DNA of 64,000 nucleotides from a virus (IMGVR_UViG_3300025740_000004:1-64000), one strand, 5' to 3'. Shown: positions 19,008 through 63,414, numbered from the stretch's first letter. Program-made: numbers and translations. Notes: generated by a model from the letters alone, not told the origin.

Positions 19008-19016
19008 TTTTTACCT

Positions 19017-35652: not shown

Positions 35653-36395
35653 TGATTAGACTTTTTAAAAATGATTGTCTTAAAGAAATGGAAAATATAG
35701 AAGATAAATCTATTGATATGATTCTTTGTGATCTTCCTTATGGGACTACAAACTGTTCCTGGGATATAATAATTCCTTTTAATAAATTATGGGAACATTA
35801 TAATAGAATAATTAAAGATCATCATGCTATTGTTTTATTTGGCAGTGAACCTTTTTCTTCAAATCTTAGAGTTAGTAATATAAAAAACTATAAATATGAT
35901 TGGATTTGGGATAAGAAAAAACCAAGCAATTTTCCTTTAGCAAAAATTCAACCAATGAAATATCATGAAAATATATCCGTGTTTAATTCTAAAATTTATT
36001 ATCCAATTATGGTGAAAGTTCCAGGAAGACATGCTAAAAAAGGAAAGAATGAAACTCCAGAAATTTTTAATGGAGGACTTTCTGATAAAAAATATTTAGA
36101 AAAAATATATACTGATAAATATCCTTCTACAATTTTGGAATTTAGTAATGCTGATCAAACAAATAGATTTCATCCGACACAAAAACCAGTAGAACTTTTA
36201 GAATATCTTATAAAAACTTATACCAAAGAGAATGAAACAATATTAGATAATTGTATGGGATCTGGCTCTACTGGAATTGCTTGCCTTAATACAAATAGAA
36301 ATTTTATCGGTATAGAAAATGATGAAAAATATTTTGATATAGCTTGTAATAGGATTTATAAACATGAAAAAAATATTAAACTTATCGAAATCTAA
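35652..36395 (+). CDS. DNA N6-adenine/N4-cytosine methyltransferase (beta class)
   Basis: DLPY, HPTQKPVELLEYLI, LDNCMGSGSTG. Confidence 0.9.
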   Translation: MIRLFKNDCLKEMENIEDKSIDMILCDLPYGTTNCSWDIIIPFNKLWEHYNRIIKDHHAIVLFGSEPFSSNLRVSNIKNYKYDWIWDKKKPSNFPLAKIQPMKYHENISVFNSKIYYPIMVKVPGRHAKKGKNETPEIFNGGLSDKKYLEKIYTDKYPSTILEFSNADQTNRFHPTQKPVELLEYLIKTYTKENETILDNCMGSGSTGIACLNTNRNFIGIENDEKYFDIACNRIYKHEKNIKLIEI

Positions 36396-47340: not shown

Positions 47341-47563
47341 GGTTTTGATGAATTATGCAGAAGAAATCACAAAACAAGTTACTCAGATAATTTTAGAATC
47401 TGGTGATATAGAAGGCTTTGATGTAGAGTCTTGGGTTAAAAATTGGATAAATTCTCCTACTCCTTGTTTGGGAGGAAGATGTCCTATAGAATTTTTAGAA
47501 GATGAAAAAGGGTATAAGATGATTTCAGATACAATTTCTAGAATCCAAAGCGGAGCATTTTAA
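47321..47563 (+). CDS. Xre/MbcA/ParS-type antitoxin C-terminal domain protein (DUF2384-like)
   Basis: WINSPTPCLGGRCPIEFL..E.G...I...I.RIQSGAF. Confidence 0.75.
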   Translation: MLYISNEVLMNYAEEITKQVTQIILESGDIEGFDVESWVKNWINSPTPCLGGRCPIEFLEDEKGYKMISDTISRIQSGAF

Positions 47564-47648
47564 TGAAAAAATTTGAAGAAAGCGTTTTAGGAAATGTTTT
47601 GTTATTCCCAATTATGATAGGATTATTAATTTTGTTTTGGATCTTTTC

Positions 47649-47981
47649 ATGATCTTTACTAGTAATTTTTCTAAGAATGGTTATAATGAAAATGCTGTTG
47701 CTATTTGTGGAAAGTCTCCTGAATGGTATTTTGGTAAAGAATATAAGAAACTTGCTCCGAAATATTGGTTCTTCAAAAAGTATAAAGAAGATCATGATGA
47801 AGACTTTTATATTAAACATTACTATGCAGAAGTTTTATCACAATTAGATCCTAAGAAAGTTTATGAAGAACTTGATGGAAAGATTTTATTATGTTATGAA
47901 AAAGAAACCGATTTTTGTCATAGATTTTTAGTAGCAGATTGGTTAGAATATAATTTAGGAATTGAGGTAAAAGAAATATGA
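47649..47981 (+). CDS. DUF488-like protein
   Basis: IFTSNF, P.WY.G.EYKKLAP, LLCYEK..DFCHRFLVA.WL. Confidence 0.7.
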   Translation: MIFTSNFSKNGYNENAVAICGKSPEWYFGKEYKKLAPKYWFFKKYKEDHDEDFYIKHYYAEVLSQLDPKKVYEELDGKILLCYEKETDFCHRFLVADWLEYNLGIEVKEI

Positions 47982-50148
47982 ATAGATATGAAGTCGGTTA
48001 TGAAGATGAAATGATTGGTATTTATTATGGTAAAGATGAATTAGAAGCCATACAAAATTGTAAAAAAGATATTAAACAAAGTAATTTTATTCCAGACACT
48101 CCATTTAAAAATCGAGTATTAAAAGGAATGATTGCAAATAAAATAGATTATTAATATGAAGACTAGAAAACCAAGAACTACTGGATCAAGTTTAAGATTT
48201 GAATTAAGTCATCAATTTGGAAGAGAAGATATTGGAATTTATTCACCAGCAAATTCTAAATTAACTAAAAGATTATTAGAAGGTCTTTGCTTAGGATGTG
48301 GTAAAAAGATTTGTAAATGTAAATCTAAAGGAAATATAAAATGAATTTGACAGTCCTAATTGAAGCAAAGTATATTCCAAATGGCTCTAAAGTTTATAAA
48401 GCTTCTGGAACATATCCATCTATATTAAAAGATAAAATTTCTGTTTATAATGAATCTGGGAAATCAGAAAGTATAGTTACAAATGGATGTAAATTTTTAA
48501 TATCAGATACTGGAAATATTAATGCAATATCTGAAAATTTAATATTAAAATGGGAAACGGATTTACATACTTTGAACTGTTTATTTGGTGAGGATGTTGA
48601 CGATGTTTAACTTTATATGTTGTTTGTTTGGGTTTAATAAGTTTGAATTTATCGTTGAGAGTGAATTTAAAACGGATTCTTGTAAATGTAAAAATTGTGG
48701 TTTTGTAAAATGACGACGTTATTATGATAGTAGAAATAATATTATAATGTTGTATAGTGAAGAGTAGTAAAAAGGAAATATAAAAATGTTAGTAAAAGAT
48801 TTAATAGATTATCTAAAAAAATTTGATCCAGAATTTGAGGTATTAATAGAAAAAGATTTTGGTTGTTTTACTATTACATTTGATGAGATTATAATACGAG
48901 ATGAAAATAGTAGAAATAATACAAACTAAAGAAATTGGATTAACTGACGGAAAGTATGATGAAGAAAATCCTTTGTTAAATGTTTTCACTAAAAATGGAT
49001 ATAAAAAAGTTACTTTGAAAGAAATAGTTTTTATAGATTGGTTGGAAGATTTAACAAAAGATGAATTGAAACAATATAAGAAATTGAACAAACTTTTAAG
49101 GAAATAAAAATGGGTGATTGGATTGAAATGAGTAATAAGTTTTGTTTGTGGATGATTATAATGTGTGTTATTACAGTTGGATTTTGTATTTTATGTATAT
49201 GTACATTATAATGGATATTGTTAAATGAAACCATATAAGAAATTGAACAAAATTTTAAGGAGATAAAAATGGGAATTGATTATGATGGAGTTGGTGGAAT
49301 TGGTATAGAATTAACCGAAGAAATCATTCAAAGATTTATTGCTGCTGAATATTTTACAGAGGATGAATGGAATGAAAGTTATGAAGATTGTTTAGAAACA
49401 ATTGGTGAAAAGTTTAACATTTCTTTTACTTCTGGTGGAAATTTTTATTCCGGAGATATTGTTCATTATCTTTTAGTAGATGGTGAAAATCTCAAAGAAA
49501 TTAATGAAAATTCTAAAACATTTATAGAGAAGTTAAAGATTATTGGTTTAGAACTTTCCGAAGAATCTTTAAAAGTAATTTCTGATTATAAGGTTTGGTA
49601 AATGAAGATTGAAAATATAAATGGTGAAGATTTTAGAAGCATTCCAAAATTATTTGAAGATAGAATTTCTCAAAGATTAATTGAAGAAGTTTTATTGCAT
49701 TGTATTAATAATTGGAATTTTGAATATGATGAATTTGAACTTTCTAATAATAGTTCAATGAAGACTTTTAAATTTTGGTTAGTTATGGATGATAGATGTT
49801 ATATAAATATAGATTATTATGAAAACGCTAAATTTTTTGATATAGAATTTTCTTATAAAAGATTTGGTGAAGATTTTTATAGAAATAGTTTAAAAACTCA
49901 TCAAATAGAAATTGTATTAAGTTGTTTAAATTGTATTTCAAATATTATAAATCGAGGATAAAATGAAAGCAAGTGAATTGATAAAAGAGTTACAGAAACA
50001 AATCTCAAAATATGGTGATTTAGAATTTATGAGATACGATCCAATAGATTCTAAATACCTTGGGATTACTATGCTTGAAATTCATGCTTTAGAAAATCCT
50101 ACACCAGATGATGAAGATGATGAAATTGATGTATTTGTATTGGAGTAA
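47978..50148 (+). other. Cluster of short hypothetical ORFs (e.g. 48156-48344, 48341-48610, 48901-49107, 49269-49601, 49602-49961, 49963-50148)
   Basis: Tightly packed plus-strand ORFs, several with RBS, no recognisable family. Confidence 0.6.
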
Positions 50149-50150
50149 AT

Positions 50151-50915
50151 ATGATTAAAATTTTAACTGGATGGGGAAATCCAGGTGGAAGTACGACCGC
50201 ACATATAAATTTAGTAAATGCTTTTAATGAATATGGTTTAGAAGCAAAATTATATTCACCTCATACATACCATTTTGATAAGTGTCCTTCTGGAAGTTTA
50301 CAAGAAGTTAATATTCAAAAGAGTGATATTGTAATTGGGCATTTTATTAATTTACCAAAGTTGAATTGTAAAAAAATGATATATTCTTGTCACGAATCAG
50401 ATTTAGATCCATTATGGAAAAAGGATTTATCTATGTATTCAAAAGTTCATTATGTTAGTAGATGGCAACAGCAATTTCATAACATAAAGAAATCGTATAT
50501 TATTATTCCAAATGTATTAGAAGATCTTAAACCTAATGAAAAATCCAATATTAAAATTGGTGGTGTTATAGGTTCTATAGATTATAATAAACAAACACAT
50601 TTATCTATATTACAAGCTTTAGAAGATGGTTGTGAAAAAGTTTATTTGTTTGGAAAGGTTACTGATGAAAACTATTTTAATAATCATGTAAAATCTTTAA
50701 TTTCTGATAAAGTTATTTTATATGGATATTGTGAGAGTAAACAATTAATGTATGATATGATTACTGATGTTTATCAAAATTCTATTAAAGAAACTTGGGG
50801 TTATGTTGCTGGGGAATGTCAATTAACTGGGACTAAATATCATAGTACTGGTATGTGTAATTTTGAATTCATGTCTAAGAATGAAATAATTGAAAAATGG
50901 AGAAAAATACTGTGA
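50151..50915 (+). CDS. Glycosyltransferase (GT-B, GT4-like)
   Basis: PGGST, SCHES, IIPNV, IGSIDYNKQ, ETWGYV..EC. Confidence 0.7.
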   Translation: MIKILTGWGNPGGSTTAHINLVNAFNEYGLEAKLYSPHTYHFDKCPSGSLQEVNIQKSDIVIGHFINLPKLNCKKMIYSCHESDLDPLWKKDLSMYSKVHYVSRWQQQFHNIKKSYIIIPNVLEDLKPNEKSNIKIGGVIGSIDYNKQTHLSILQALEDGCEKVYLFGKVTDENYFNNHVKSLISDKVILYGYCESKQLMYDMITDVYQNSIKETWGYVAGECQLTGTKYHSTGMCNFEFMSKNEIIEKWRKIL

Positions 50916-51628
50916 ATTGGATTGAAATAACAACTAAAATTGGGTGTAAGAATATGTGTTCTTATTGCCCACAAACTAAGTTTTTGAAAGAATATAAAGA
51001 CACTAAGAAATTAATGACACTAGACGATTTTAAGTTTTTCCTTTCAAAAATTAATAACAAAGAAACAAAAATTCATTTTTCTGGTTTTTCGGAATCTTTT
51101 ATTAATGATGAAAGTGTTGATATGATGATACACGCTTTCAATTCTGGTTTTGGTGTTATTTTGTACACTACATTGGTTGGATTTACTTTAGAGAAAGCTA
51201 AGAAGTTGAAAGAATCTGGAATGATTTTTGAACAAACTAGAATGCATGAATTTGATGGTGTTGGTTTTAATAGAGAAGTTTTTAACAACTCTGAAGTTAT
51301 GTTTAGAGAAAATGTAAAAAGTCTAGATCATAGAATTGTTAGAGTTGATAATCCGATGTCTAGAGGTGGTTCTTTGTTTGAGGTTCATCACAAACTTGGA
51401 AAAATTAGATGTGTCGAAAATAGATATTTCAATAATGTTTTATTGCCAAATGGTGATTTATATATGTGTTGTTCTGATTGGTTACTAAAACATAAGATTG
51501 GTAATTTGAATGAAGATATATATTCTAGCAATGAATTAAATGAAAATAGAATTAAAAATATAAAGTTGTGTGACTCATATGATTCTGATATCATTTGTAG
51601 AGATTGTGAATGGAGTTACAATGTTTGA
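50897..51628 (+). CDS. Radical SAM protein with SPASM/Twitch domain
   Basis: CKNMCSYC, NGDLYMCCSDW, IGNL, CRDC. Confidence 0.85.
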   Translation: MEKNTVNWIEITTKIGCKNMCSYCPQTKFLKEYKDTKKLMTLDDFKFFLSKINNKETKIHFSGFSESFINDESVDMMIHAFNSGFGVILYTTLVGFTLEKAKKLKESGMIFEQTRMHEFDGVGFNREVFNNSEVMFRENVKSLDHRIVRVDNPMSRGGSLFEVHHKLGKIRCVENRYFNNVLLPNGDLYMCCSDWLLKHKIGNLNEDIYSSNELNENRIKNIKLCDSYDSDIICRDCEWSYNV

Positions 51629-52355
51629 AAATGTTTACTATGTAATTGTTCATAGAGATAGTGACGAAAAAAGAACTAGAAATTTAATTTATACATGCAA
51701 ATATATTCGTTCTTTAGGTCTTAATGTTTTAGTTATTGAACAAGACACAGAAAAGAAAATAGAATTGTTGTGCAAATCTTTGGATGTTGAATATGCATTT
51801 ATTAAAAATTCTGGTTTGTTTAATAGAGCTTGGGGATTTAATTGCTTCAGGAATTTCATAAAAAGCGATAAGGTATTTTTAGCAGACAATGATATAATTT
51901 TAGACAAAGATGTTATTTACAACACAATAAAACTTTTAGATACTTACGATGTTGTTCGTCCTTTTAATGGTGTTGTTTCTTATTATGATGAATCTGCGAC
52001 GGACAAACTTTTCAAAACAAATGAAAGGACATTAGACAAACAATTTAAACTAGTCAACATTTTTAATTTGTCTGGTGGTATTTGTGCTTTTAGAACAGAT
52101 TCTTTTTACAATAAACTTGGTGGATTTGATGAAAGATTTGAGGGTTGGGGTGGTGAAGACGATGAAATGCACAAACATATACTTCAACTTGGTTTGGATG
52201 TTTTTTCGTTTACTTCAGTTGGAATTCATATGAATCATGAAAGAAATCATAATGAAGGAAATTGGCAACCGAATTATAATAAAAATTTGGTTTATATAAA
52301 TGATAATAAGAGAAATGAAAACATTTCTATAGGAAACATTAATAGGTATGAGTAA
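51570..52355 (+). CDS. Glycosyltransferase (GT2/GT7 galactosyltransferase-like)
   Basis: FNRAWGFN, ADND, GGFDERFEGWGGEDDE. Likely start MFENV at 51621. Confidence 0.85.
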   Translation: MTHMILISFVEIVNGVTMFENVYYVIVHRDSDEKRTRNLIYTCKYIRSLGLNVLVIEQDTEKKIELLCKSLDVEYAFIKNSGLFNRAWGFNCFRNFIKSDKVFLADNDIILDKDVIYNTIKLLDTYDVVRPFNGVVSYYDESATDKLFKTNERTLDKQFKLVNIFNLSGGICAFRTDSFYNKLGGFDERFEGWGGEDDEMHKHILQLGLDVFSFTSVGIHMNHERNHNEGNWQPNYNKNLVYINDNKRNENISIGNINRYE

Positions 52356-52977
52356 AGAAATTTTCACAAACATTTATAATAATCATTCTTGGGGTGGTGT
52401 TAGTAAATCTGGTCCTGGAAGTGATTTAGAACAGACGAAAGTTTTGATAGAAGAACTTCCAAGACTTTTTATGAAACATGATATTAAAACATTTTTAGAT
52501 GCTCCTTGTGGAGATTTTCATTGGATGAAGTTTGTAGATAAAACAAATGTTAAGTATATTGGTGGTGATATTGTATCTAATGTAATATCTTCTAATAAAA
52601 AGAATTTTGAAACAGATGATATTAGTTTTTTGGAATTGGATATCATTAACGACAAATTACCAAAAGCAGATGTCATATTTGTTAGAGATTGTTTGGTTCA
52701 TTTTCCTATACAATCTATATATAAATTTTTGTTCAATCTTATTTCAAGCGACATTAGATATTTGATGACAACTACATTTGTTAATAGAAATGTTAATTAT
52801 GATATTAACTTTGGTGAATGGAGACAGTTAAATTTGTTGGTATCTCCTTTCAATTTTCCAAAACCATTAGAGATTATAAATGAGGGTTGTACAGAAAACA
52901 ATAACTCCAACGCAGATAAGTCTATGTGTTTGTGGAATGTTTCTGATATCGAAAAGATTTTATTGAGAGCTAGATAA
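52348..52977 (+). CDS. Class I SAM-dependent methyltransferase
   Basis: SGPGS, LDAPCGDFHWM, YIGGDIV, RDCLVH. Confidence 0.85.
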   Translation: MSKEIFTNIYNNHSWGGVSKSGPGSDLEQTKVLIEELPRLFMKHDIKTFLDAPCGDFHWMKFVDKTNVKYIGGDIVSNVISSNKKNFETDDISFLELDIINDKLPKADVIFVRDCLVHFPIQSIYKFLFNLISSDIRYLMTTTFVNRNVNYDINFGEWRQLNLLVSPFNFPKPLEIINEGCTENNNSNADKSMCLWNVSDIEKILLRAR

Positions 52978-53816
52978 TGATCAGAGTTAAGTTTCATCAA
53001 AATTTTGAAGCAGACGAACAGATATACTATAAAGTTTTATCTATGTCACCAAATAACAAAAATATATGGAAAAATATTAAAGTTGTTTCTGATGATGATT
53101 ATGATATTTTTGTCATATTGAATTGTCCTACTCATCAAAATTATGATAGATCTAGAACAATAGTTTTTAATTGCGAAACAAAAAGCACAAGAGATAATCT
53201 TTCTACTTTTTATAAGGGAATTGAGTCTGAATTTCTTTATATTCATGATACCGAAAATCATTTTAATGTAGATCTTTGGTATCATGGTTTAACTTTTGAT
53301 CAATTAAATAATGAAGAAATGTTTCAAAAGAATAAAAATTTTAGTGTTATAAATTCAAATCTTAATAATTTATCTGGGCATATTATTAGAAATAATTTTA
53401 TAAAGTATATGTGTGATAGAATTGAATATGATTTGTTTGGTAGATTTCCAACAAATGATAAAAATTATAAAGGAAGATTGGTTAATAAATATGATGGTTT
53501 GATTGGTTATAAATACACATTCAATCATGAAAACGATATAGAAAATAATTACTTTACAGAAAAACTTTTGGATGGAATTTTTTGCGAATGTTTAACTTTT
53601 TATGGTGGTTGTCCTAATATAGAAAAATTCATAAACCCAAATTCTTTCATAAAACTTAATCTTGAAAACTTTGAAGAATCGTTCAATGTGATTCGAGATG
53701 TCATATCAAATGATTTGTGGAAAGATTATGTAAAAGATATCAAAGAAGAAAAAAGAAGAATCATGGTAGATTATAATATTTTAAATATAGTGAGCAATAT
53801 ATTGGAGAAAATTTGA
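52977..53816 (+). CDS. Glycosyltransferase family 10 (fucosyltransferase-like)
   Basis: YKYTFNHEN..NNYFTEKL.D....C.TFYGGCPNI. Confidence 0.8.
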   Translation: MIRVKFHQNFEADEQIYYKVLSMSPNNKNIWKNIKVVSDDDYDIFVILNCPTHQNYDRSRTIVFNCETKSTRDNLSTFYKGIESEFLYIHDTENHFNVDLWYHGLTFDQLNNEEMFQKNKNFSVINSNLNNLSGHIIRNNFIKYMCDRIEYDLFGRFPTNDKNYKGRLVNKYDGLIGYKYTFNHENDIENNYFTEKLLDGIFCECLTFYGGCPNIEKFINPNSFIKLNLENFEESFNVIRDVISNDLWKDYVKDIKEEKRRIMVDYNILNIVSNILEKI

Positions 53817-54733
53817 TGGATCTAGCGATTAATTTTTTACCACACAACAGAAGATATTTGATGTTACATACGTTGAAAGAATTTTCTAAGACAAACGAAA
53901 AATACAAAAACAAATTTAAGATTTATATTCATGATAATATTGACAACGATTATGTAAAAGATATTCTTAAAGACATAAATTATGAAATTGTTAATCATGG
54001 AACACACAATTATATTACAAAAATAAACTATGCTATAAATTTACATCATGCTTATTCTATGAAAATTGATGAAGATATTTTTATGAATCATCATGTTTTA
54101 GAATATGTATTAGACAATTTAAATTTGATTTCTGATGAGAATTTTATACTATCTCCTATTTTATCTACAGGAATCCCAAGCACCGAAATGTTTGTTGATG
54201 ATTTTTGTCCAGAAGAAAAAGAAAATATTTTTAAAATGTTTTGTGATACACATGTTTGTAATTTATGGGGAGCAAACTATTCTTCGTTAAATTATAACAA
54301 ATCGCGTTGGTGTGCTAATGAATATTATGATAAAGTAAATCAATTAGATCATTATTATAAAGGAATCCATCCAATAAGAATAAATGTTAGTATTCAAAAT
54401 TTTCTATTAAATGTAATCAAAAACAAAAAACAAAAATTATACGAAAAACAAGAATATTATACAGAGTCAAAACAAATTCCTTATATTTGTAATTCGTTGT
54501 TTGTTATAAAAACCGATGAATGGAAAAAGATTATAACAAATGGTTCTTTGTATAGAGATGAATATGACGAAGTTCCTTTAAATCTTTATATGAAACAATT
54601 TGATAAGAATGTTTTGTTTGTGCGAAATGCTAATTGTATTCATCCAGTATATAATACAGTAGATGTTTTTAATCAAGGTATGTATAATTCTTTGTCTATT
54701 GAATGGAATAAAATTTTGGAGGAATCTGTATGA
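53813..54733 (+). CDS. Putative GT-A glycosyltransferase
   Basis: KIDEDIF DxD-like motif and island context. Confidence 0.5.
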   Translation: MMDLAINFLPHNRRYLMLHTLKEFSKTNEKYKNKFKIYIHDNIDNDYVKDILKDINYEIVNHGTHNYITKINYAINLHHAYSMKIDEDIFMNHHVLEYVLDNLNLISDENFILSPILSTGIPSTEMFVDDFCPEEKENIFKMFCDTHVCNLWGANYSSLNYNKSRWCANEYYDKVNQLDHYYKGIHPIRINVSIQNFLLNVIKNKKQKLYEKQEYYTESKQIPYICNSLFVIKTDEWKKIITNGSLYRDEYDEVPLNLYMKQFDKNVLFVRNANCIHPVYNTVDVFNQGMYNSLSIEWNKILEESV

Positions 54734-55083
54734 AAACAATTTTTTGTGATATTGATGGGACTCTTCTTAAACATACAGGTGATATTTCAAAACAACACAA
54801 AATAAATGGTGACGTAATTCTTCTTCCAGGAACATTACAAAAATTAAAAGAGTGGGACAAAAAAGGTTATAGAATTATCTTAACAACAGGAAGAAGAGAA
54901 AGTACTAGAAAAAGAACAGAAGAACAACTGTTAGAAGCTGGTATATTTTACGATTTGTTGATTATGGGTCTTAGTAATGGCAATAGAGTTTTAATCAATG
55001 ACAGAAAGGTAGATTCTGTTTTGGATACTGCGTTTGGTATAAATATAGATAGAAATGTAGGTATTGAAAATGTTGAAATCTGA
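54730..55083 (+). CDS. Small HAD-family phosphatase
   Basis: FCDIDGTL, LTTGR, YDLLIMG, LINDR. Confidence 0.8.
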   Translation: MKTIFCDIDGTLLKHTGDISKQHKINGDVILLPGTLQKLKEWDKKGYRIILTTGRRESTRKRTEEQLLEAGIFYDLLIMGLSNGNRVLINDRKVDSVLDTAFGINIDRNVGIENVEI

Positions 55084-55426
55084 TATAAAAATAATTGAAA
55101 AACCTTGGGGTAAAGAAGAGTTATTAGAAAAAAATGATTTTTATGTCGTTAAAAGATTGTATATGAAATGTGGACACAAATGTTCTATGCAATATCATGT
55201 AGATAAAATCGAAACAATATATGTTTTAAGCGGAGCTTTGAAAATTTATATTGGAGAATCTTTAGAAAATATTAAAGAAGAAAACTATCATGAAGGAGAT
55301 TTTGTAACTATCAAAAACAATATGATTCATAGAATGGAAGGTGTTACAGATTGTGTTTATTTAGAATCATCAACTACTCAATTGGACGATGTTGTTAGGA
55401 TTTCTGATGTCTACTCAAGAATATAA
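55064..55426 (+). CDS. Cupin (sugar isomerase-like)
   Basis: EKPWGKE, SMQYH..K.ET.YVLSG, IHRM. Confidence 0.8.
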   Translation: MKMLKSDIKIIEKPWGKEELLEKNDFYVVKRLYMKCGHKCSMQYHVDKIETIYVLSGALKIYIGESLENIKEENYHEGDFVTIKNNMIHRMEGVTDCVYLESSTTQLDDVVRISDVYSRI

Positions 55427-56948
55427 AGTTTTAATAACTGTTAGTGGTTTGGGTTCAAGATTAGGAGATTTGACAAAGTATATTAACAAATCTTTAATTA
55501 AGGTCGGGAAGAAGCCAGCAATATCATACATTATAGAATCGTATCCTAAAGAAACACAATTTGTTATTACTCTTGGTCATATGGGAAATGTTGTTAAGCA
55601 ATTTTTAGAATTGGTTTATTCTGATAGATTTTTTGAGTTTGTTTATGTTGACAAGTATGAAGGAACTGGTAGCAGTCTTTTGTATTCTATAAATTGTGCT
55701 AAAGAAAATCTACAATGCCCTTTTATTTTTCATGCTTGCGACACTATAACAGATGATATTAAATTTTCTGGAAATTGTTTATATTTAAGTAAATCTTTTG
55801 AAAACATAAATGAATACAGAACAGTTAATATAGATAAAAATATAATTCTAGAAAAATCAAATCATGCTAATTCATATCCTTACATTGGAGTTTGTTCTAT
55901 AAATGATTATAAATCTTTTTGGAAATCTCTTCAAGTTACATTAAATGGTGAATTTGAACAAAGTGATTGTAGTGTTATTAATGCAATGCTAAACAGTGGT
56001 ATAAAGTTTGATTATAAATTTGTAGAGAAATGGTTTGATGTTGGTAATTTAGAAAGTTTAAATCGTGCTAGGAAAAATATAGAAGATAGATTTGATATTC
56101 TAGACAAATTACAAGAAAGTATTTACATTTTTAAAGATTTCGTAGTTAAATATTTCTATGATAAAAATCTGATCAAAAATAGAGTAGATCGAACAAAATC
56201 ATTAAATGGAACTGTTCCCGACATAATAGGACAAACTGAAAATTTTTATAAGTATTCTTTCGTGTTTGGTGATGAATATTCCCATATAGTGAACGATGAT
56301 AATTTTTTAGAATTGTTAAGTTTCACTAATAACAAATTGTGGAAAATTAAAGGACCAAATATAAAGAATGAGTGTTTGAAATTTTATAAAAACAAAACAA
56401 ATGATAGACTGAAAGAGTATTTTTCTCGTTTTAATTTACAAGACACATCATATGAAATTAATGGGATTATTGTACCATCAACAAAAGAATTATTATCTAA
56501 TATAAATTTTGAAGAATTTTGCGATATCGAATCTTCAAAATTTCATGGTGACTTTATTTTAGAAAATATTATAAAAGGTGAATATATAGCATTGATTGAT
56601 TGGCGACAAGATTTTGGTGGATGTTTGGAATATGGAGATTTGTATTATGATTTGGCGAAAATGAATCATAATTTAATCATAGACCATTCGATTGTTTATA
56701 GAAATTTGTTCACATTAAATAATACTGATAGTGGTGTGGATATTGATATTCATGTTTCTTTTAAGAATATTTCTTTGAAACAAGTTTTTGACAAATTTTT
56801 GAACGAAAATAATTATGATAAAAATAGAGTTGAAATTCTCACTGGGTTAATTTGGTTGAATATGTCTCCATTACACGATGATAATTTTTCTAAATTTATT
56901 TTCAATATGGGCAAATTAAAATTATATAGGAGTTTGTATGGTAAGTAG
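55389..56948 (+). CDS. Sugar nucleotidyltransferase fused to APH/choline-kinase-like phosphotransferase
   Basis: SGLGSRL..LTK..NKSL and WFDVGN in the N-terminal half. HGDFILENI, IDWR and YYDLAK in the C-terminal half. Confidence 0.8.
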   Translation: MLLGFLMSTQEYKVLITVSGLGSRLGDLTKYINKSLIKVGKKPAISYIIESYPKETQFVITLGHMGNVVKQFLELVYSDRFFEFVYVDKYEGTGSSLLYSINCAKENLQCPFIFHACDTITDDIKFSGNCLYLSKSFENINEYRTVNIDKNIILEKSNHANSYPYIGVCSINDYKSFWKSLQVTLNGEFEQSDCSVINAMLNSGIKFDYKFVEKWFDVGNLESLNRARKNIEDRFDILDKLQESIYIFKDFVVKYFYDKNLIKNRVDRTKSLNGTVPDIIGQTENFYKYSFVFGDEYSHIVNDDNFLELLSFTNNKLWKIKGPNIKNECLKFYKNKTNDRLKEYFSRFNLQDTSYEINGIIVPSTKELLSNINFEEFCDIESSKFHGDFILENIIKGEYIALIDWRQDFGGCLEYGDLYYDLAKMNHNLIIDHSIVYRNLFTLNNTDSGVDIDIHVSFKNISLKQVFDKFLNENNYDKNRVEILTGLIWLNMSPLHDDNFSKFIFNMGKLKLYRSLYGK

Positions 56949-57492
56949 TATAGAATATTCTTGTGGCCTGTTGAACGAAAAGTATAAAGACATTTTAGAA
57001 TTTGGTGTATATCAAGGAACAACAATCAGAAAAATAGTTGATTGTGTAAATGGGTTTAGAATTTTTGGATTTGATACGTTTGAAGGATTGCCAGAAGATT
57101 GGAAAGGAACTGTTTGTGATAAAGGTTTCTTTTCTACAAATGGATTAATTCCAGATATTAAAGGTGTTCATTTTTTCAAAGGGTTGTTTTCTGACACTCT
57201 AAAAGAATATCTATTAGACCCAAAAGACATTTCATTGCTTCATATTGACTGTGATTTATATTCATCAACAAAAGATGTTTTATATGGTTTGAATGAATAT
57301 ATAAAAGAAGGAACAATAATTTGTTTTGATGAATGGTTATATTGTGGTATTGATGGAACTATGAAAAATGATTGTGAACAAAAATGTTTTTATGAATGGG
57401 TGTCTGATTTTGATAGGTCTTTTGAATTTGTTGATTTCGTAGACAATACTGCTTGTGGACACGAACGAAAGATTGTAAGGATCATCAAATGA
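56938..57492 (+). CDS. TylF/MycF-like sugar O-methyltransferase
   Basis: LEFGVYQG, GFDTFEGLPEDW, HIDCDLYSST, FDE. Confidence 0.82.
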   Translation: MVSSIEYSCGLLNEKYKDILEFGVYQGTTIRKIVDCVNGFRIFGFDTFEGLPEDWKGTVCDKGFFSTNGLIPDIKGVHFFKGLFSDTLKEYLLDPKDISLLHIDCDLYSSTKDVLYGLNEYIKEGTIICFDEWLYCGIDGTMKNDCEQKCFYEWVSDFDRSFEFVDFVDNTACGHERKIVRIIK

Positions 57493-58442
57493 AATATTGT
57501 ATAGGACCAATGAGTAAAAATGTTGTTGATTCTGTTATTGATTTCGTTAATAATAATAATGTAGAAATTGGTTTGATTCCATCTAGAAGACAAGTTGATT
57601 ATTTTGGTGGATATGTTAACCATTGGAACACTAAAACTTTTGTAGATTATGTTAAATCTAAAACACATAATATAAAAATTATAAGAGATCATGGTGGAGA
57701 ATTTCAAGGAAGTGTTGAAGATGATGGTGTTGTTTCATTTTTTATAGATTCTGTTTTTGTTGATGGTATTCATGTTGATGTCTGGAAAAAGAATAAAAAT
57801 TTAGAAGATGCAATTTTATCTACAATTAAAAATATAAAACATTGCTTGACCATAAACGATAATCTATTTTTTGAAATTGGAACAGAACAATCAATTAGAG
57901 AATATAGTGCCGATGAATTAGATTATTTTATAGAAAATGTTAAAAATGGTCTTGCTGACGATTTTTGTAAAGTGAAATATGCGGTCATTCAATGCGGAAC
58001 TTCTTTAAAATCAAACATCAACACTGGAAATTATTCAGAAACAAAACTTATAGATATGTTAAGCGTAGTAAAAAAACATGGTTTGATGTCAAAAGAACAC
58101 AATGGAGATTATACTACAAAAGATATTAAATATAAAAAATTTTCAAATGGTTTAGATTGTATAAACATCGCTCCAGAATTTGGTCTTATTGAAACAGAAA
58201 CTATTTTAGAAAGTATGAAAGAATATGAGTTTCAAACATATTTTGATATTTGCTATTCTTCAAACAAATGGAAAAAATGGGTGAATGAAGATTTTGATCC
58301 ACATAACAACAAAAATGAACTTATAAAAATTTGTGGTCATTATGTAAGAACAGATTCTTGGGTTGATAATTATGTTGTTGAAAATAATTTAAATGATGTG
58401 ATAAAAACAAACATATATTCTTTTTTGGAGAGCCTTTATTAA
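57453..58442 (+). CDS. TIM-barrel sugar epimerase/aldolase-like protein
   Basis: IGPMS, RDHGG, IHVD, FEIGTE, KEHNGDY, NIAPEFG. Likely start MKYCIG at 57489. Confidence 0.55.
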   Translation: MWTRTKDCKDHQMKYCIGPMSKNVVDSVIDFVNNNNVEIGLIPSRRQVDYFGGYVNHWNTKTFVDYVKSKTHNIKIIRDHGGEFQGSVEDDGVVSFFIDSVFVDGIHVDVWKKNKNLEDAILSTIKNIKHCLTINDNLFFEIGTEQSIREYSADELDYFIENVKNGLADDFCKVKYAVIQCGTSLKSNINTGNYSETKLIDMLSVVKKHGLMSKEHNGDYTTKDIKYKKFSNGLDCINIAPEFGLIETETILESMKEYEFQTYFDICYSSNKWKKWVNEDFDPHNNKNELIKICGHYVRTDSWVDNYVVENNLNDVIKTNIYSFLESLY

Positions 58443-59116
58443 TGTTCTGTATTCCTTGTAAATATAATAAAACAAGTAATAACATAATTGAATTAGTTAA
58501 ACAAATAAGACATTTTCATAAAAACGAAAAGATTGTTGTCGTTGATTCTTGTTCAGAAGATAAATCTTATTTCGAAGAATTGGAAGTTTATGATGCTATT
58601 GTTTTAGATGTGAATAATACTAATTGGATGGTTGGTGCGTATCCAAACGAAGAGCATTACTATTTCATCCACGATTCTACAAAAATAAAAGCTTCTTTAG
58701 ATTATTTGAAAACAGACGAGTTAACTTTAATCGCAACGTTTGATAAGAGTGTTGGTAATTTTAATGGATTGAATGAAGAAATCAGACAAAAAACAAAGTA
58801 CAAAAATATAAAAGATTTTGGGTTTGGTTGTTATGGTCCTATGTTTTTTTGTAAAGGAAAATTGATGAATAAATTGTATGATAACGATTTTCATTTAATA
58901 TTACCAAACAACAAACAAGAAACTGGTTGGATGGAAGGTGCATTTGGTGCCGTGTTTGAGGAAGAAGGTTTTGATTTAATGAAGTGTTCTCTTTATGGAA
59001 ACATTTTAGAACATGAATCTCTAGGAGGAAAATCATATCCACACCCTTTTAACACATCTTGGCAGTTTCCAATTGAAAAATTTTATGCATCACATTTAGA
59101 CATATCGAGGTTATGA
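58442..59116 (+). CDS. Putative GT-A glycosyltransferase
   Basis: IVVVDSCSED and FIHDS. Confidence 0.55.
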   Translation: MFCIPCKYNKTSNNIIELVKQIRHFHKNEKIVVVDSCSEDKSYFEELEVYDAIVLDVNNTNWMVGAYPNEEHYYFIHDSTKIKASLDYLKTDELTLIATFDKSVGNFNGLNEEIRQKTKYKNIKDFGFGCYGPMFFCKGKLMNKLYDNDFHLILPNNKQETGWMEGAFGAVFEEEGFDLMKCSLYGNILEHESLGGKSYPHPFNTSWQFPIEKFYASHLDISRL

Positions 59117-59811
59117 TGGGGATTACTTTCGGAATAATAACAAATGGCGATAGAGATATTTCTGATGTTCTTCAGTCTATAGTGGATAATAACATAGAAC
59201 ATTTTGAAATAATAGTTGTTGGTGGATTTAGAAAATATGAAAATTTTAAAGTTACTTATATTGAATTTGATGAGTCTATAAAACCAGCGTGGATAACTAG
59301 AAAGAAAAATTTAATAACAAAATATGCAAAATATGAAGATATTGTTTATATGCATGATTATATATTATTATCAAAAGATTGGTACAAAAACTATAACACA
59401 AATTATGATATCTGCTGTAATAGAATATTGAATTCTGATAAGACAAGATTTAGAGATTGGTGTTTGAATGAATTACACATGAATACTTTTAGATATATCG
59501 GTATGAAACTTTATAATAGAAATATGATAATACCTTATAACTACAACTTCAGCAAATTCATGTACATATCTGGTTCGTATTTTTTGGCTAAGAAGTATGT
59601 GATGGAAGAATTTCCTTTAGACGAAAACTTAGTTTGGGGTCAAGGCGAAGATGTTTATTGGTCTATGAATGTGTTGTCTAAATATAATTTTACAATGAAC
59701 GAAAGATGTGAAGTTTATCTTACAAAATACAAAGAACTTGCTTTAGATTTTATAGATGAAACTGATTTGAAATTGATAGACGATAATTACAAAAATTTGA
59801 CAAGGGGTTGA
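59113..59811 (+). CDS. Putative GT2-like glycosyltransferase
   Basis: EIIVVG, WITRKKN, YMHDY, LDENLVWGQGEDVYWS. Confidence 0.7.
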   Translation: MMGITFGIITNGDRDISDVLQSIVDNNIEHFEIIVVGGFRKYENFKVTYIEFDESIKPAWITRKKNLITKYAKYEDIVYMHDYILLSKDWYKNYNTNYDICCNRILNSDKTRFRDWCLNELHMNTFRYIGMKLYNRNMIIPYNYNFSKFMYISGSYFLAKKYVMEEFPLDENLVWGQGEDVYWSMNVLSKYNFTMNERCEVYLTKYKELALDFIDETDLKLIDDNYKNLTRG

Positions 59812-59812
59812 T

Positions 59813-60358
59813 ATGGAAAACATTTTAGAAGAACTCGCTATAAAATATGGAACAGACAAGCAAATTAAAAATGGTCATGGATATACTCAATTATACAATG
59901 ATCTTTTTAAAGACATAAGATTAAATGAGTTAAATTTTTTTGAACTTGGTGTTAGAGGAGGTTGGTCTATTAACATGTGGGCAGAATATTTTCCTAATTC
60001 TAAAATATGGTGTATTGATAATGATTTTGAAAAATTGTGTCCAGAAAAATTTGAAAATGATAGGATTAATTTTACAATATGTGATCAAGATGATTCGAAC
60101 AAATTGTCAGAAATTCATAATTTTTCAGGAGATTTTGATATCATTATAGACAACTGTTCTCATATATCACACTTAACAATTAAAAGTTTTGAAATTCTAT
60201 TTCATTTCTTAAAAAAAGATGGTATGTATGTTATAGAAGATTTGCATACATGCGATTTTAAAAACTATACACCACATGGTCCAACAACATTAGAATACTT
60301 CAGAGCAAGTAATTATAATGTAGAATATTTTGGAAAGGTTTGTGTTGTTAGAAAATAA
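59813..60358 (+). CDS. Class I SAM-dependent (MycE-like sugar O-) methyltransferase
   Basis: YGTDK..HGY..Y, ELGVRGGWS..MW.EYFP, FDIIID..SH, YVIEDL. Confidence 0.8.
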   Translation: MENILEELAIKYGTDKQIKNGHGYTQLYNDLFKDIRLNELNFFELGVRGGWSINMWAEYFPNSKIWCIDNDFEKLCPEKFENDRINFTICDQDDSNKLSEIHNFSGDFDIIIDNCSHISHLTIKSFEILFHFLKKDGMYVIEDLHTCDFKNYTPHGPTTLEYFRASNYNVEYFGKVCVVRK

Positions 60359-60893
60359 TATAAAAGTATTTTTTCACATATATGATTATCCAAAATCAAA
60401 AGATATTGTTGATGAAATGTTATCATATTTTGACAATGAATTAAAACAGAAAATTGAATTTAGTCATAATATAGATGAGCTTGATACATTAAATCAGTTA
60501 CACAATTTCTCAAAAGCAAATGCAGATTATAAAATTCTTTATATTCATACTAAAGGTGCTGTTAATCGAAACGAAAATGTAGATTCTTGGCGAAAGTATA
60601 TGTGCAGATATTTGATCAATAATTACAAAGAATGTTTATTAAGTTTATATGATCATGATGTTTGTGGTGTTGATTTTAGAAAGGAACCTCAGTCGCATTT
60701 TTCTGGAAATTTTTGGTGGGCGAATTGTCAGTATCTAAATAAATTAGAAGAACCAGAAAAAACATATTCGTCATTAACTCCAAGACATCGTTCTGAATTT
60801 TGGATAGGTACAAAAAGTCCAAAAGTATGTTCTATGATGGATTGTGGTGTTGGTGTTTATGAAAGACATCTGTATAACTATGATAATTTTTAG
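60330..60893 (+). CDS. Glycan-cluster protein of unknown function
   Basis: ILYIHTKG, WRKYM, HFSGNFWWA, EFWIG. Confidence 0.55.
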   Translation: MERFVLLENNIKVFFHIYDYPKSKDIVDEMLSYFDNELKQKIEFSHNIDELDTLNQLHNFSKANADYKILYIHTKGAVNRNENVDSWRKYMCRYLINNYKECLLSLYDHDVCGVDFRKEPQSHFSGNFWWANCQYLNKLEEPEKTYSSLTPRHRSEFWIGTKSPKVCSMMDCGVGVYERHLYNYDNF

Positions 60894-60900
60894 GTGATAT

Positions 60901-62286
60901 ATGAACAAAAAATTGATAATATTCGATCTTGATGGTGTTATAATTGATTCTAGACAACTTCATTTTGATGCTTTAAATAATGCTTTAAGAGAAGTATCTG
61001 AACAGTTTGTCATTTCTACAGAAGATCATAACAAAAGATTTGATGGTCTTCCTACAAACAAAAAATTAGAAATACTAACTTCTGAAAGAGGATTGTCTAA
61101 AGAACTTCATTCAAAAATATGGAAAGATAAACAAGAAAAAACATTTGAATCAATTAAACATACCGTTGTTAAAGACGAAAAACTTATAGATATTTTCAAT
61201 AATCTTAAATCAATTGGTTGTAAAATTTGTGTTGCTTCTAATTCTATCGCACTTACAATTGAACTTATATTGAAACAAAAAGAAATTTATGATTTGGTTG
61301 ATTTGGTTGTATCTAATGAAGATGTTAAATTTCCAAAACCAAATCCTCAGATGTATTTAAAGTGTATGACAACTTTCGGGATTTCTCCAAGGGACACAAT
61401 TATAGTAGAAGATTCTTTTGTTGGTAGACAGGCTGCATTTGATTCTGGGGCTGTTGTGTGTCCTGTAAAAAATACAAAAGAAGTAACATTTGAAAGAATT
61501 TATAATTACATAGATAGGAAAAAAGATAAAATGAAATGGACAAACAAAAATTTAAATGTGTTGATTCCTATGGCAGGAGAAGGATCTAGGTTTTCAAAAG
61601 CTGGTTATACATTTCCAAAACCAATCATAGAAGTAAATGGAAAACCTATGATTCAATTGGTTGTAGAAAACCTAAACTTAGATGCCAATTACATTTATAT
61701 TATTAGAAAAGAACACAATGAAAAGTTTGGAATTTCTAGTATGTTGAATCAAATTACTCCTGGTTGTAAGATCGTAGAAGTAGACTATCTCACAGAAGGA
61801 GCAGCATATACAACTCTATTAGCAAAAGAGTTTATAGACAATGATATGGAGCTTCTTATTGCTAATTCGGATCAATATGTAGAATGGGAATCTGGAGAAT
61901 TTTATCATACAATTAACAATCCAAATATAGATGGTGCAATTTTATGTTTCGAGAACACTAATCCAAAATGGTCTTATGTTAAATTGAATTCTGATGGAAA
62001 TGTTTCTGAAGTTAAAGAGAAAGAAGTCATTAGTAATTTAGCAACAATAGGAATTTATTATTGGGCTTCTGGTAAAGATTATGTTAAATATGCAGAACAA
62101 ATGATTTCTAAAGATATTCGATATGGACAATTATTTAATGGACGAAGAGAATTTTATGTAGCTCCTGTATACAATGAAGCATTTTTAGAAAACAAAATTG
62201 TGAAACCATATACTGTTCAAAAAATGTATGGCCTTGGAACACCAGAAGATCTTGAAATTTTTGTGAGAAATTATGAACCTAAATGA
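60901..62286 (+). CDS. HAD phosphatase fused to nucleotidyltransferase (GT-A fold)
   Basis: FDLDGV, KPNP, VEDS in the N-terminal half. IPMAGEGSRF..AGY..PKP, ANSDQ, GLGTPEDL in the C-terminal half. Confidence 0.85.
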   Translation: MNKKLIIFDLDGVIIDSRQLHFDALNNALREVSEQFVISTEDHNKRFDGLPTNKKLEILTSERGLSKELHSKIWKDKQEKTFESIKHTVVKDEKLIDIFNNLKSIGCKICVASNSIALTIELILKQKEIYDLVDLVVSNEDVKFPKPNPQMYLKCMTTFGISPRDTIIVEDSFVGRQAAFDSGAVVCPVKNTKEVTFERIYNYIDRKKDKMKWTNKNLNVLIPMAGEGSRFSKAGYTFPKPIIEVNGKPMIQLVVENLNLDANYIYIIRKEHNEKFGISSMLNQITPGCKIVEVDYLTEGAAYTTLLAKEFIDNDMELLIANSDQYVEWESGEFYHTINNPNIDGAILCFENTNPKWSYVKLNSDGNVSEVKEKEVISNLATIGIYYWASGKDYVKYAEQMISKDIRYGQLFNGRREFYVAPVYNEAFLENKIVKPYTVQKMYGLGTPEDLEIFVRNYEPK

Positions 62287-62584
62287 TTTTACAAAAGGAT
62301 GGTTGGTTGGGGATTTTGTTCCAGCTATTATAAATTCAAAAGATATAGAAGTTGGTGTAAAAAAATATAAAAAAGGAGATGTTGAAAATACGCATGTTCA
62401 CAATATCATAACAGAATACACAATCATATTGATAGGAAAAGTTAAAATGCTTGATAAAATATTTTTTGAAAACGATGTTGTGAAAATTGATCCAGGCATT
62501 CCTACAAGTTTTGAATGTTTAGAAGATTGTATAACTCTTGTGATAAAAACACCAAGCATTCCATCTGATAAAGAAATTCTATAA
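62273..62584 (+). CDS. Small cupin-like protein
   Basis: KGWLVGDF.P, H.H....EYT, VIKTPS. Confidence 0.65.
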   Translation: MNLNDFTKGWLVGDFVPAIINSKDIEVGVKKYKKGDVENTHVHNIITEYTIILIGKVKMLDKIFFENDVVKIDPGIPTSFECLEDCITLVIKTPSIPSDKEIL

Positions 62585-62704
62585 TCTCTTTTCTATAAAG
62601 TCTTGTTTGATTAAAGGAAATTTGTTTGTTTTTGTAGTATGAGTTAATACATGTTGTTCTATAGGAGTTAGATCGTTTAATTCTAATAATCCAAATGCTA
62701 ATCT
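62579..62704 (-). pseudogene. 3' fragment of a divergent homologue of the RuvC-like gene at 63423
   Basis: Translates ...EQHVLTHTTKTNKFPLIKQDFIEKRL* versus YKHVLTHTTPKNKIPLIRRDFIQKKV*. Confidence 0.75.
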
Positions 62705-62705
62705 A

Positions 62706-62986
62706 GTTGGAAATGGTGGTTTAGTCTTAGATCTAAAAAAATATTAGAACTTCCATCGGTAAAGAATATTAAATTAATATCTACTAATGATATGCCTTAT
62801 CCAGTAGAAGATATTAATTATTGTGCGTATAATTTGAAGACATTTTTGGATAATAATATAAAATATGTGCCTATACAATTGGCTTCCAAATTTTCAACAG
62901 AAATTAATATACCAAGTATTTCTAGAGAATCTTTTGGGTTTCATAGCTTTAAATTTAATCCGCAATATTCAAATATATTAATTTAA
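62706..62986 (+). pseudogene. 5'-truncated, frameshifted DUF5672-like (glycosyltransferase-associated) remnant
   Basis: VGNGG, then a 1 nt deletion before SLRSKK, then ED...C, A.KFSTE, FGFH. Confidence 0.65.
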
Positions 62987-63015
62987 CTTTCTTTTGAAAA
63001 TTTTAAAAAAATCCC

Positions 63016-63044
63016 TTGACAACCAAAATTAAATGTGCTATCTT
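63016..63044 (+). promoter_or_regulatory. Sigma70-like promoter with ATTAAA spacer element
   Basis: TTGAC-aaccaaa-ATTAAA-tgtgc-TATCTT. Confidence 0.7.
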
Positions 63045-63066
63045 ATGTTTAGAAAAGGAACCAATT

Positions 63067-63414
63067 ATGAAAAATTACTCTATTAAAACTCTAGTGTCTA
63101 AAAATCTTATCGATCCAAATGAATATAAATTCTTCTATACTCCAGAAGATGGGATAATATTAAACTATATTGATATCGAAAAGTATAATAATTCTCTATC
63201 AAATATTGAAAATGTTTCGTTTGAACCTGTATGCGATGATACTTATGAAAAATTCGAATTTAATAACAAACAAGAATATCAAGTTGTTAAGAGTATTATT
63301 GTTGATAAACTTAATGCTCTAGGATTTCATCATGATCTAGTGACTCAAAAATACTATGACGATATTTTAGAAACAGAAGATGATGTAGAATATTGTTGTG
63401 TGACGTATTGGTAA
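63067..63414 (+). CDS. Hypothetical protein
   Basis: AAGGA RBS before MKNYSI. The track start at 63016 coincides with the -35 box. Confidence 0.6.
   Translation: MKNYSIKTLVSKNLIDPNEYKFFYTPEDGIILNYIDIEKYNNSLSNIENVSFEPVCDDTYEKFEFNNKQEYQVVKSIIVDKLNALGFHHDLVTQKYYDDILETEDDVEYCCVTYW

Follow-up and report, generated by a model that had tools for sequence, protein, structure and literature searches.

What does a phage assemble with a seventeen-gene sugar island, and onto which molecule is the product placed? The question is raised by IMGVR_UViG_3300025740_000004, a viral contig of 92,374 bp in IMG/VR whose first 64 kb (64,000 nucleotides, referred to here as the window) contain an island of 17 open reading frames (ORFs) on the + strand at positions 50151-62584, named g01 to g17. 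A preliminary description of this DNA had read the island as a system that glycosylates the virion. At the level of enzyme families and folds, the island is very probably a self-contained cytoplasmic kit that assembles a methylated sugar chain. It was also observed that g01 and the genes downstream of the island are conserved anchors while g02-g17 form one of several alternative cassettes, and this documented replacement of a whole cassette between near-identical strains is a new observation. A virion protein as the acceptor is our best explanation of the whole, with a probability of about 35%.

Judging from its genes, the phage is a distant T4-like myophage in which portal, scaffold, gp46/47, a family-B polymerase, UvsX, gp41, gp32 and primase were recognised, and its major capsid protein (7280-8569) shares 33% identity with cyanomyovirus capsids; fibre proteins are encoded at 10850-12616 and 16394-17284. 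It also looks strictly lytic. CheckV gives a completeness of 37%, and searches of the phage genome cover the 92-kb contig, the remaining 63% of the genome being missing. The guanine-plus-cytosine (GC) content is 27% across the phage and the island (0.26-0.28) does not differ from the rest. The sequencing runs that carry the island are activated-sludge and wastewater metagenomes. No tRNA genes were found in the window, and megablast of the island against cultured phages gave no match.

Organization of the island

The 17 ORFs are as tightly packed as the preliminary description had stated: neighbours overlap by 1-59 nt at 15 junctions, and two junctions have gaps of 1 and 7 nt. Membrane segments are absent from all 17 proteins (the highest 19-residue Kyte-Doolittle mean was 1.54), and no flippase, exporter, polymerase, ligase or priming phosphoglycosyl transferase families were detected in Pfam and NCBIfam scans of the island proteins. 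The earlier remark that no flippase, polymerase or membrane glycosyltransferase (GT) is recognisable in the window was upheld for the island by these results. This absence, together with that of a priming transferase, fits assembly of the sugar chain on an acceptor located in the cytoplasm.

Glycosyltransferases, methyltransferases and the radical SAM protein

About six glycosyltransferases had been described as GT4-, GT2/GT7- and GT10-like, and this number was borne out by three firm (g03, g05 and g13) and three probable (g01, g06 and g12) assignments. g03 (51570-52355) is a GT2/GT7-like GT-A enzyme which matches Glyco_transf_7C (46.5 bits against a cut-off of 23; E 2.9e-12) and the galactosyl transferase family phrog_1721 (2.2e-11). 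g05 (52977-53816) is GT10-like, of the fucosyltransferase type, with a GT10 C-terminal domain (Glyco_transf_10, 1.6e-6; 28.4 bits against a cut-off of 23.9) and homologues in eight related loci. The AlphaFold2 (AF2) model of g13 (59113-59811; pLDDT 87) adopts a GT-A fold for which Foldseek returned K4CP, TarS, WrtF, GalNAc-T2 and TarP at E-values of 6e-9 to 1e-7.

The three probable enzymes were assigned from weaker matches and motifs. g01 (50151-50915) is a compact GT4-like (GT-B) candidate whose Atlas features point to Glycos_transf_1 clusters. Its homologue P0208 matches Glycos_transf_1 (PF00534) at 2.6e-5, which is under the cut-off, and the best PDB matches of a g01 profile were BshA (E 0.17) and group 1 glycosyltransferases (E 0.17-0.28). 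g06 (53813-54733) is probably a GT-A enzyme and weakly GT31-like, with a Galactosyl_T match under the cut-off (3.9e-4) and a D-x-D motif that is invariant in a four-sequence alignment; its profile found no match among PDB sequences. g12 (58442-59116) is probably a GT2-like GT-A enzyme where the N-terminal VVVDSDS and HDS motifs are conserved and one homologue matches Glycos_transf_2 at E 0.0075, and a profile search of the PDB gave no meaningful match.

Three methyltransferases had also been proposed, and two to three are supported, a class I and a TylF-like enzyme together with a weaker third. g04 (52348-52977) is a class I S-adenosylmethionine (SAM) methyltransferase (phrog_3382, 1.3e-38) that also shows weak Methyltransf_31, Methyltransf_23 and Methyltransf_25 matches, and g10 (56938-57492), a candidate sugar O-methyltransferase, is of the TylF/Methyltransf_24 type (TylF 8.3e-12; Methyltransf_24 5.9e-8). 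The third, g14 (59813-60358), is a probable SAM methyltransferase with matches to Methyltransf_31 and Methyltransf_24 (E of about 0.002) and to the BC85_0335 family (0.0013). In the proposed assembly, g01, g03, g05, g06, g12 and g13 would add sugars one by one, and g04, g10 and perhaps g14 would methylate them.

g02 (50897-51628) encodes a small protein of 243 aa that agrees with the radical SAM enzyme reported earlier. Its Radical_SAM match (2e-5; 25.2 bits) lies under the Pfam cut-off of 29.5, its SPASM match (2.4e-4) falls at the cut-off, and a C-x3-C-x2-C motif is located close to the N-terminus. g15 (60330-60893) is a conserved protein for which Pfam, NCBIfam and PHROG scans gave no family match; Pfam searches with homologues of g06, g15 and g17 also found nothing. 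Homologues of g15 with 31-39% identity occur within the islands of the related contigs L040, L046, L023 and L014.

Two observations concern transferases outside the island. In many aquatic contigs (L103, L109-L111, L118-L123 and L131-L133), a g01 homologue directly follows a Glyco_tranf_2_5 transferase and a small protein. The counterparts of these two genes in the present phage are found at contig positions 87011-87439 and 90828-91541 (L003), near the clamp loader and 37-40 kb from g01, and the three-gene unit appears to be split in this genome. Separately, a 400-aa glycosyltransferase-like gene (phrog_7162, 1.9e-18) is located directly after gp47 at 33987-35189; it could not be matched to T4 AGT, Pfam, NCBIfam or PDB sequences. 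In T4, alpha-gt occupies the same place after gp47 and has the same length.

A sugar-activation module related to AfhE and AfhF

A new finding is that g07, g08, g09 and g11 may be interpreted as a form of the AfhE/AfhF pathway that handles a different sugar. g09 (55389-56948, 519 aa) is a fusion in which a sugar-1-phosphate nucleotidyltransferase (NTP_transferase), with LicC (1jyk) and RmlA as its best PDB sequence matches, is followed by an APH/choline-kinase-like kinase. The protein matches phrog_4098 over its full length (2e-9; residues 13-502 against 3-486 of 559), and this family includes RB69 gp53 (1e-118) and gp52 (1e-169), the two halves of one gene. A profile made from g09 and four homologues was aligned collinearly by hhalign with gp53 (86.5%, E 4.6e-6) and gp52 (82%, E 1e-5), the latter alignment spanning the H-G-D...D-x-R...Y-D-x-A-K kinase motifs. 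Two genes upstream of g09, g07 (54730-55083, 117 aa) is a small HAD phosphatase that matches several HAD Pfam families. Its N-terminal 75 residues also show a weak match (6.7e-6) to phrog_1238, which includes RB69 gp51 (1.9e-42) and ORF046 of Enterococcus phage 9183 (2.4e-28). By these profile comparisons, g09 and g07 are remote homologues of AfhE/AfhF-type enzymes (RB69 gp52:53 and gp51). The relationship is visible to profile methods only: with tblastn, no island protein matched the RB69 cluster below E 0.05. In IMG/VR, an initial scan with g09 returned no confirmed relative.

The kinase domain of AfhE phosphorylates arabinose-5-phosphate at C1, the HAD enzyme AfhF takes off the 5-phosphate and the N-terminal domain of AfhE then makes UDP-arabinose for arabinosylating 5-hydroxycytosine in DNA (PMC13326640). 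The phages with arabinosylated 5-hydroxycytosine (RB69 gp51, gp52:53 and gp55; DLP3 gp81-83; HY126 AfhE/AfhF; PMC13326640) have the same fusion and HAD protein, in PHROGs 4098 and 1238, and the island likely follows the same logic from a sugar phosphate through a sugar-1,n-bisphosphate and a sugar-1-phosphate to a nucleoside diphosphate (NDP) sugar. In contrast to this pathway, the island has no BLAST similarity to it and contains a cupin (g08) and an aldolase-like barrel (g11) in place of the SIS arabinose-5-phosphate isomerase, PF01380 giving no match on the 92-kb contig. The sugar therefore probably differs from arabinose.

g08 (55064-55426) is a mannose-6-phosphate isomerase-type cupin (MannoseP_isomer 2e-10; Cupin_2 8e-8; C-terminal part of TIGR01479 3.8e-10) and a candidate for interconverting ketose and aldose phosphates. 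g11 (57453-58442, with the true start probably at 57489) had been called an epimerase-like barrel; the barrel was retained and is more precisely a TIM barrel of the class II aldolase/GatZ-KbaZ superfamily. Its AF2 model (pLDDT 89) was matched by Foldseek to 2fiq (GatZ; E 1.5e-12, TMq 0.79) and 3txv (E of about 1e-12), followed by class II fructose- and tagatose-bisphosphate aldolases, and a single-sequence search of the PDB gave no usable match. Residues H80, H107, H216, H296, D79, D109 and E141 were invariant in 27 sequences. Membership of the superfamily is well indicated by the model, and the predicted activity is that of a ketose-phosphate aldolase or 4-epimerase. More than 2400 homologues with about 50% identity were found, nearly all viral or environmental, some of which carry a fused SnoaL-like domain and some of which are named in their source as 'fructose/tagatose bisphosphate aldolase'.

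By analogy with AfhE/AfhF, the metal-dependent g11 would make or 4-epimerise a ketose phosphate which g08 would isomerise to the aldose phosphate. The kinase half of g09 would then phosphorylate C1, g07 would take off the distal phosphate and the N-terminal half of g09 would form the NDP-sugar, so that a phosphomutase is bypassed. The order g07-g08-g09-g11 is preserved in L005 and in the IMG/VR contigs L040, L046 and L023. In the present island g10 sits between g09 and g11, and it is absent from the block in L005, L040 and L023. The four-gene cassette was found in no cultured cyanophage. L005 (Marine virus AG-345-E15, MH319741), from a single marine cell, contains a larger putative sugar island at 1-31539 with more than 30 co-directional and mostly overlapping genes around this block.

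The same homology bears on another explanation, in which the oligosaccharide would be placed on a hydroxylated base of the phage DNA and would act against restriction, CRISPR and DNA glycosylases, the base-modifying enzyme being of an unfamiliar kind or encoded in the missing part of the genome. It is supported by the collinear relationship of g09 and g07 to RB69 proteins that serve UDP-arabinose synthesis and by Enterococcus phage 9183, where an AfhE/AfhF-like pair adjoins a D177 ThyA homologue, a dUTPase and a dTMP kinase. Against it stands the substitution of g08 and g11 for the isomerase of the arabinose route. The island also differs from the arabinose clusters in having no N169/D177 ThyA homologue, nucleotide kinase or dCTPase beside it. 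On balance we consider DNA an unlikely acceptor.

The region of phage 9183 (L006, MT939241) is itself of interest. Positions 5893-12424 hold a dTMP kinase, a dCMP-hydroxymethylase-like ThyA homologue with D177, a dUTPase, an AfhF-like HAD, an AfhE-like 544-aa fusion, a 406-aa gene, RNase H and a 'nucleotide sugar synthetase-like' gene, in this order. The arrangement suggests that this cultured phage has a cluster for DNA glycosylation that had not been described.

A second activation module and its relatives in cyanophages

g16 (60901-62286) is a beta-phosphoglucomutase-family HAD fused to a sugar-1-phosphate nucleotidyltransferase (HAD_2 1.5e-26; NTP_transferase 1.6e-10; TIGR02009 5.7e-28). 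g17 (62273-62584) is a small cupin of 103 aa, with an H-x-H...E motif that is conserved in a nine-sequence alignment and a weak YhhW/pirin profile match (E 0.013). It is a regular downstream partner of g16 and follows the g16 homologue in 10 loci. In this second route, the phosphoglucomutase-type domain of g16 would shift the phosphate to C1 and the fused nucleotidyltransferase would activate the sugar, and g17 may afterwards alter the product. With g09 and g16 as the two nucleotidyltransferase fusions, g07 as the HAD protein and g08 and g17 as the two cupins, the sugar-activation inventory of the preliminary description was recovered.

At least 591 homologues of g16 were confirmed in IMG/VR. 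g13 is the commonest neighbour of g16 homologues and stands just upstream of them in 38 of 80 loci, and 11 of the 17 island genes recur together as one block, at 31-58% identity, in other large and distant phage contigs. g16 shares 54% identity with gp067 of S-CAM9, which lies inside a 10-kb cluster of four annotated glycosyltransferases, an epimerase and a HAD protein and is preceded by a 217-aa gene at the usual place of g13 homologues. On sequence grounds the island belongs to the many-gene sugar islands of T4-like cyanophages, known as cyanomyovirus 'LPS / cell-wall synthesis and modification' clusters (LPS, lipopolysaccharide), which likewise occur in T4-like myophages and combine many soluble glycosyltransferases with nucleotide-sugar enzymes. 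S-SCSM2R lists GT10- and GT2-type enzymes as well (PMC12801897). The island differs from these clusters in adding the g07-g08-g09-g11 cassette, a radical SAM protein and TylF-type methyltransferases, in lacking their short-chain dehydrogenase/reductase (SDR) epimerases and Kds genes, and in its activated-sludge habitat and GC content of 27%.

This kinship brings in the possibility that the soluble transferases extend or cap a lipid-linked glycan of the host (LPS or lipooligosaccharide (LOS) core, O-unit or wall polymer) on the inner side of the membrane. Export of the product would be left to the host machinery, and the changed cell surface would, for example, block other phages or re-adsorption of progeny. 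Such is the usual reading of the homologous clusters of P-SSM2, S-SCSM1 and S-SCSM2R, the last with 13 glycosyltransferases (PMC12801897), and the S-CAM9 ortholog of g16 belongs to a cluster of this kind; the reading is supported by no experiment for any cyanophage cluster. It would agree with the enzyme types, since GT10-, GT31-, GT2/7- and GT4-type enzymes and methyl caps are typical of LPS/LOS outer core and O-antigen and LPS-core transferases work without a membrane segment. It does not agree with the lack of a priming phosphoglycosyl transferase, flippase, polymerase and ligase or with the apparently strictly lytic nature of the phage. To our knowledge, only temperate phages, carrying one to three genes, have been shown to convert the host surface.

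Replacement of the cassette between conserved flanks

Gaps in contig cover were counted as evidence only where a contig bridges or leaves the stretch concerned. The clearest case is L102, a metagenomic contig of 7,050 bp which is 97.4% identical to window positions 50438-50905 and 97.8% identical to 62674-63165. Between these flanks it has only 6.1 kb with a different gene set, comprising a g03-like gene (67% aa identity), a g05-like gene (60%), two more genes of transferase-like type, one that resembles SDR epimerases and three others. The radical SAM protein, the methyltransferases and both activation modules are absent from L102, and g01 is 96-97% identical. At the right boundary (62585-62986, + strand), a 64-codon ORF of the window (62792-62986) shares 95% identity with the C-terminus encoded by a 215-aa L102 gene, of which it is a 3' remnant.

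Other samples showed a similar pattern. Run X8, from 2016 sludge of another study, covers both flanks at about 100% identity and has almost no interior; one of its contigs joins 50905 to 51621, and g02 is therefore missing from this variant. Runs X3 and X6 (wastewater, 2025) contain an 11.4-kb contig that is collinear with 50748-62124 at about 96% identity, and the next X3 contig departs from the window sequence at 62628. Nearly the same cassette was thus present in wastewater sampled nine years later. L012, a more distant relative, has gp41, gp32, a DNA methylase, the island and a RuvC-like late gene in the same position with another gene set. Relatives retrieved via the primase are found on contigs that stop short of the island. 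The break points fall at about 50.75-50.9 kb and 62.63-62.67 kb, so that the coordinates of the island nearly coincide with the recombination unit. Swapping of the cassette between conserved flanks implies that its product is under diversifying selection and that something recognises it.

Replacement of this kind is a hallmark of surface-polysaccharide loci and speaks for the host envelope as the acceptor. O-antigen and capsule loci likewise have alternative gene sets between conserved flanks, with the shared genes more diverged inside, as seen here for g03 (67% protein identity) and g05 (60%) against flanks of 96-98% (protein and DNA). Those loci have Wzx/Wzy, an ABC exporter or a priming transferase, whereas the island of this lytic phage has none of these and no membrane protein. 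With both sides considered, remodelling of the host envelope is somewhat improbable, though it ranks directly after the virion. The swapping would also suit DNA as the acceptor, since DNA-glycan genes vary among close T-even relatives.

The variable gene content raises a further explanation in which there is no single product, the island being a mosaic of independently gained sugar genes with several targets or making a free or small-molecule-linked oligosaccharide. L012, L102, L040 and L014 share only subsets of the genes, g10 has been inserted into an otherwise conserved four-gene block, and g01 elsewhere travels with a GT2_5 gene and a 142-aa gene from which it is 37 kb away here. We regard this as quite improbable, for the 17 genes share one strand and show translational coupling throughout, 11.4 kb remained collinear at about 96% in samples nine years apart, and eleven genes stay together across distant phages. 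The pattern is that of one pathway with exchangeable steps.

Search for base-modifying enzymes

Known DNA-glycosylation pathways usually put the base enzyme beside the transferases (bioRxiv 10.1101/2023.12.21.572611). The preliminary description had found no thymidylate-synthase-like gene in the window, which was confirmed, and had named a dCMP/dUMP hydroxymethylase elsewhere as an observation that would overturn its interpretation. The 92-kb contig contains a single ThyA homologue, located outside the window at contig 83186-84109, with 224 bits on PF00303 and 150.7 bits on the thymidylate synthase equivalog TIGR03284 (cut-off 108). L143, D169 and N177 are all retained, and the gene for dihydrofolate reductase comes immediately after it, as in a td-frd pair (contig 83186-84609; L003:5186-6609). 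This protein has the appearance of an ordinary thymidylate synthase and is rather diverged in sequence, G-N-F-H-V-Y replacing, for instance, the usual G-D-x-H-x-Y. The ThyA homologues used for comparison are RB69 gp48, with N169 and D177, and ORF044 of phage 9183, with D177. In a control, the genome search recovered variant ThyAs at 56 and 83 bits, so that variants on the contig would not have been missed.

No match to Tet_JBP, ThyX, SIS, MazG or C5-methylase was found on the contig, nor to the alpha-glucosyltransferase (AGT) family PF11440; the beta-glucosyltransferase family PF09198 was not searched. No dCTPase or nucleotide kinase adjoins the island. A DNA methylase at 35652-36395, 460 nt downstream of the 400-aa transferase-like gene, is of the N6/N4 type. 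Island-bearing relatives of 206 kb (58% complete) and 94 kb (42% complete) each have one canonical ThyA and no Tet_JBP, and the same holds for a complete 362-kb genome with g16, g17 and a g19-like gene, where ThyA is also canonical only. As far as these genomes go, the results weaken the case for DNA as the acceptor, which was not confirmed. The described DNA glycans contain up to three sugars (PMC13326640). Six transferases together with O-methylation exceed any of them and speak for an acceptor other than DNA.

The virion as acceptor

By a small margin, we rank a virion protein first, followed in decreasing order by the host envelope, DNA, and no single or some other product. Three reasons put the virion first: the only proven counterparts of so large a set of soluble transferases and methyltransferases with its own sugar supply come from viruses whose glycans are placed on their own virions, lipid-carrier machinery is absent, and no base-hydroxylating enzyme was found. 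The capsid of chlorovirus PBCV-1 and the fibrils of mimivirus carry glycans made by virus-encoded nucleotide-sugar synthesis, soluble GT-A and GT-B transferases and sugar methyltransferases, without a lipid carrier or the host secretory machinery. By general description, the make-up of these clusters is similar to that of the island, although the giant viruses infect eukaryotes. PBCV-1 A064R was not among the top Foldseek matches of g13. Among phages, a citing paper mentions virion glycosylation in mycobacteriophages Che8, Corndog and Myrna (Freeman et al. 2023, as cited in PMC12619734). As they are described there, soluble phage glycosyltransferases could likewise decorate capsid or tail proteins in the cytoplasm. 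According to the same description these systems have few genes and act on the C-termini of capsid and tail-tube proteins, whereas the island has 17 genes, its own sugar activation and no visible tag.

Several observations weigh against a virion acceptor. The capsid and other late proteins on the 92-kb contig have no runs of four or more Ser/Thr residues and no C-terminal tails or tags, and a search of the virion proteins for [ST]-G-[ST] gave nothing. This covers only the 37% of the genome that is available, a part that does not include the tail-tube gene or most other tail genes. The island is placed after the primase, inside the replication module and not the structural module. Of 80 related loci, 14-23 have gp43, UvsX or gp41 no more than 10 kb away from the g16 homologue, and in none does this homologue adjoin capsid or portal genes. 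No clear intergenic late promoter was seen before the island. The plastic replication-module region is also the site of the DNA-modification genes of T4 and RB69 (PMC6024577), those relatives of g09 and g07 that have been characterised all function in DNA glycosylation, and GT-A folds are seen among DNA glycosyltransferases, whose genes are found together with those of APH kinases and epimerases (bioRxiv 10.1101/2023.12.21.572611). From the preliminary description, then, the enzyme inventory and the idea of a soluble, self-supplied glycan stand, and for the virion as acceptor no positive evidence was found.

If a protein of the phage particle is the acceptor, cassette swapping would give the strains different types of glycan. 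Tentatively, virion proteins may carry a methylated hetero-oligosaccharide, and the swaps would create virion 'glycotypes' akin to bacterial serotypes.

Promoter-type signals and flanking regions

Within the island, TATAAATA boxes fall inside genes, except for one located 26 nt before the start of g08. Sigma70-like sites occur upstream of the island at a frequency not above that of shuffled sequence, and no terminators were found. At several genes neighbouring the island, clear TATAAATA boxes were observed 18-33 nt before the start codons, and all 10 boxes in the window have the orientation of the local genes. A RuvC-like gene (phrog_159) at 63423-64157 on the - strand converges on the island and is preceded by a TATAAATA box at a distance of 22 nt from its start.

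The small-ORF stretch between the primase and the island (47340-50150) is mosaic. A relative with about 94% identity, L008, is without 47353-47557 and 48344-48770, and the X3 contigs skip 49106-49265 and 50003-50151. Further upstream, a tandem duplication was noticed (12630-17284 and 17298-21955) that comprises portal (569 aa), 167-aa, 517-aa and 296/297-aa genes. ORF lengths are equal in both copies, and the duplication may be real or an assembly artefact.

Implications

Sugar islands of many genes were recognised in T4-like cyanophages some twenty years ago, and in no case has their target been established. The homology to AfhE/AfhF gives a concrete candidate route to an activated sugar for the four-gene cassette, and the replacement of the unit in near-identical strains narrows the target to the virion, the host surface or DNA. 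Were it the virion, variable sugar coats would be expected on large phages of aquatic and wastewater habitats, with a bearing on adsorption, stability and phage use. The island would then parallel, in a bacteriophage, the autonomous glycosylation systems of giant viruses.

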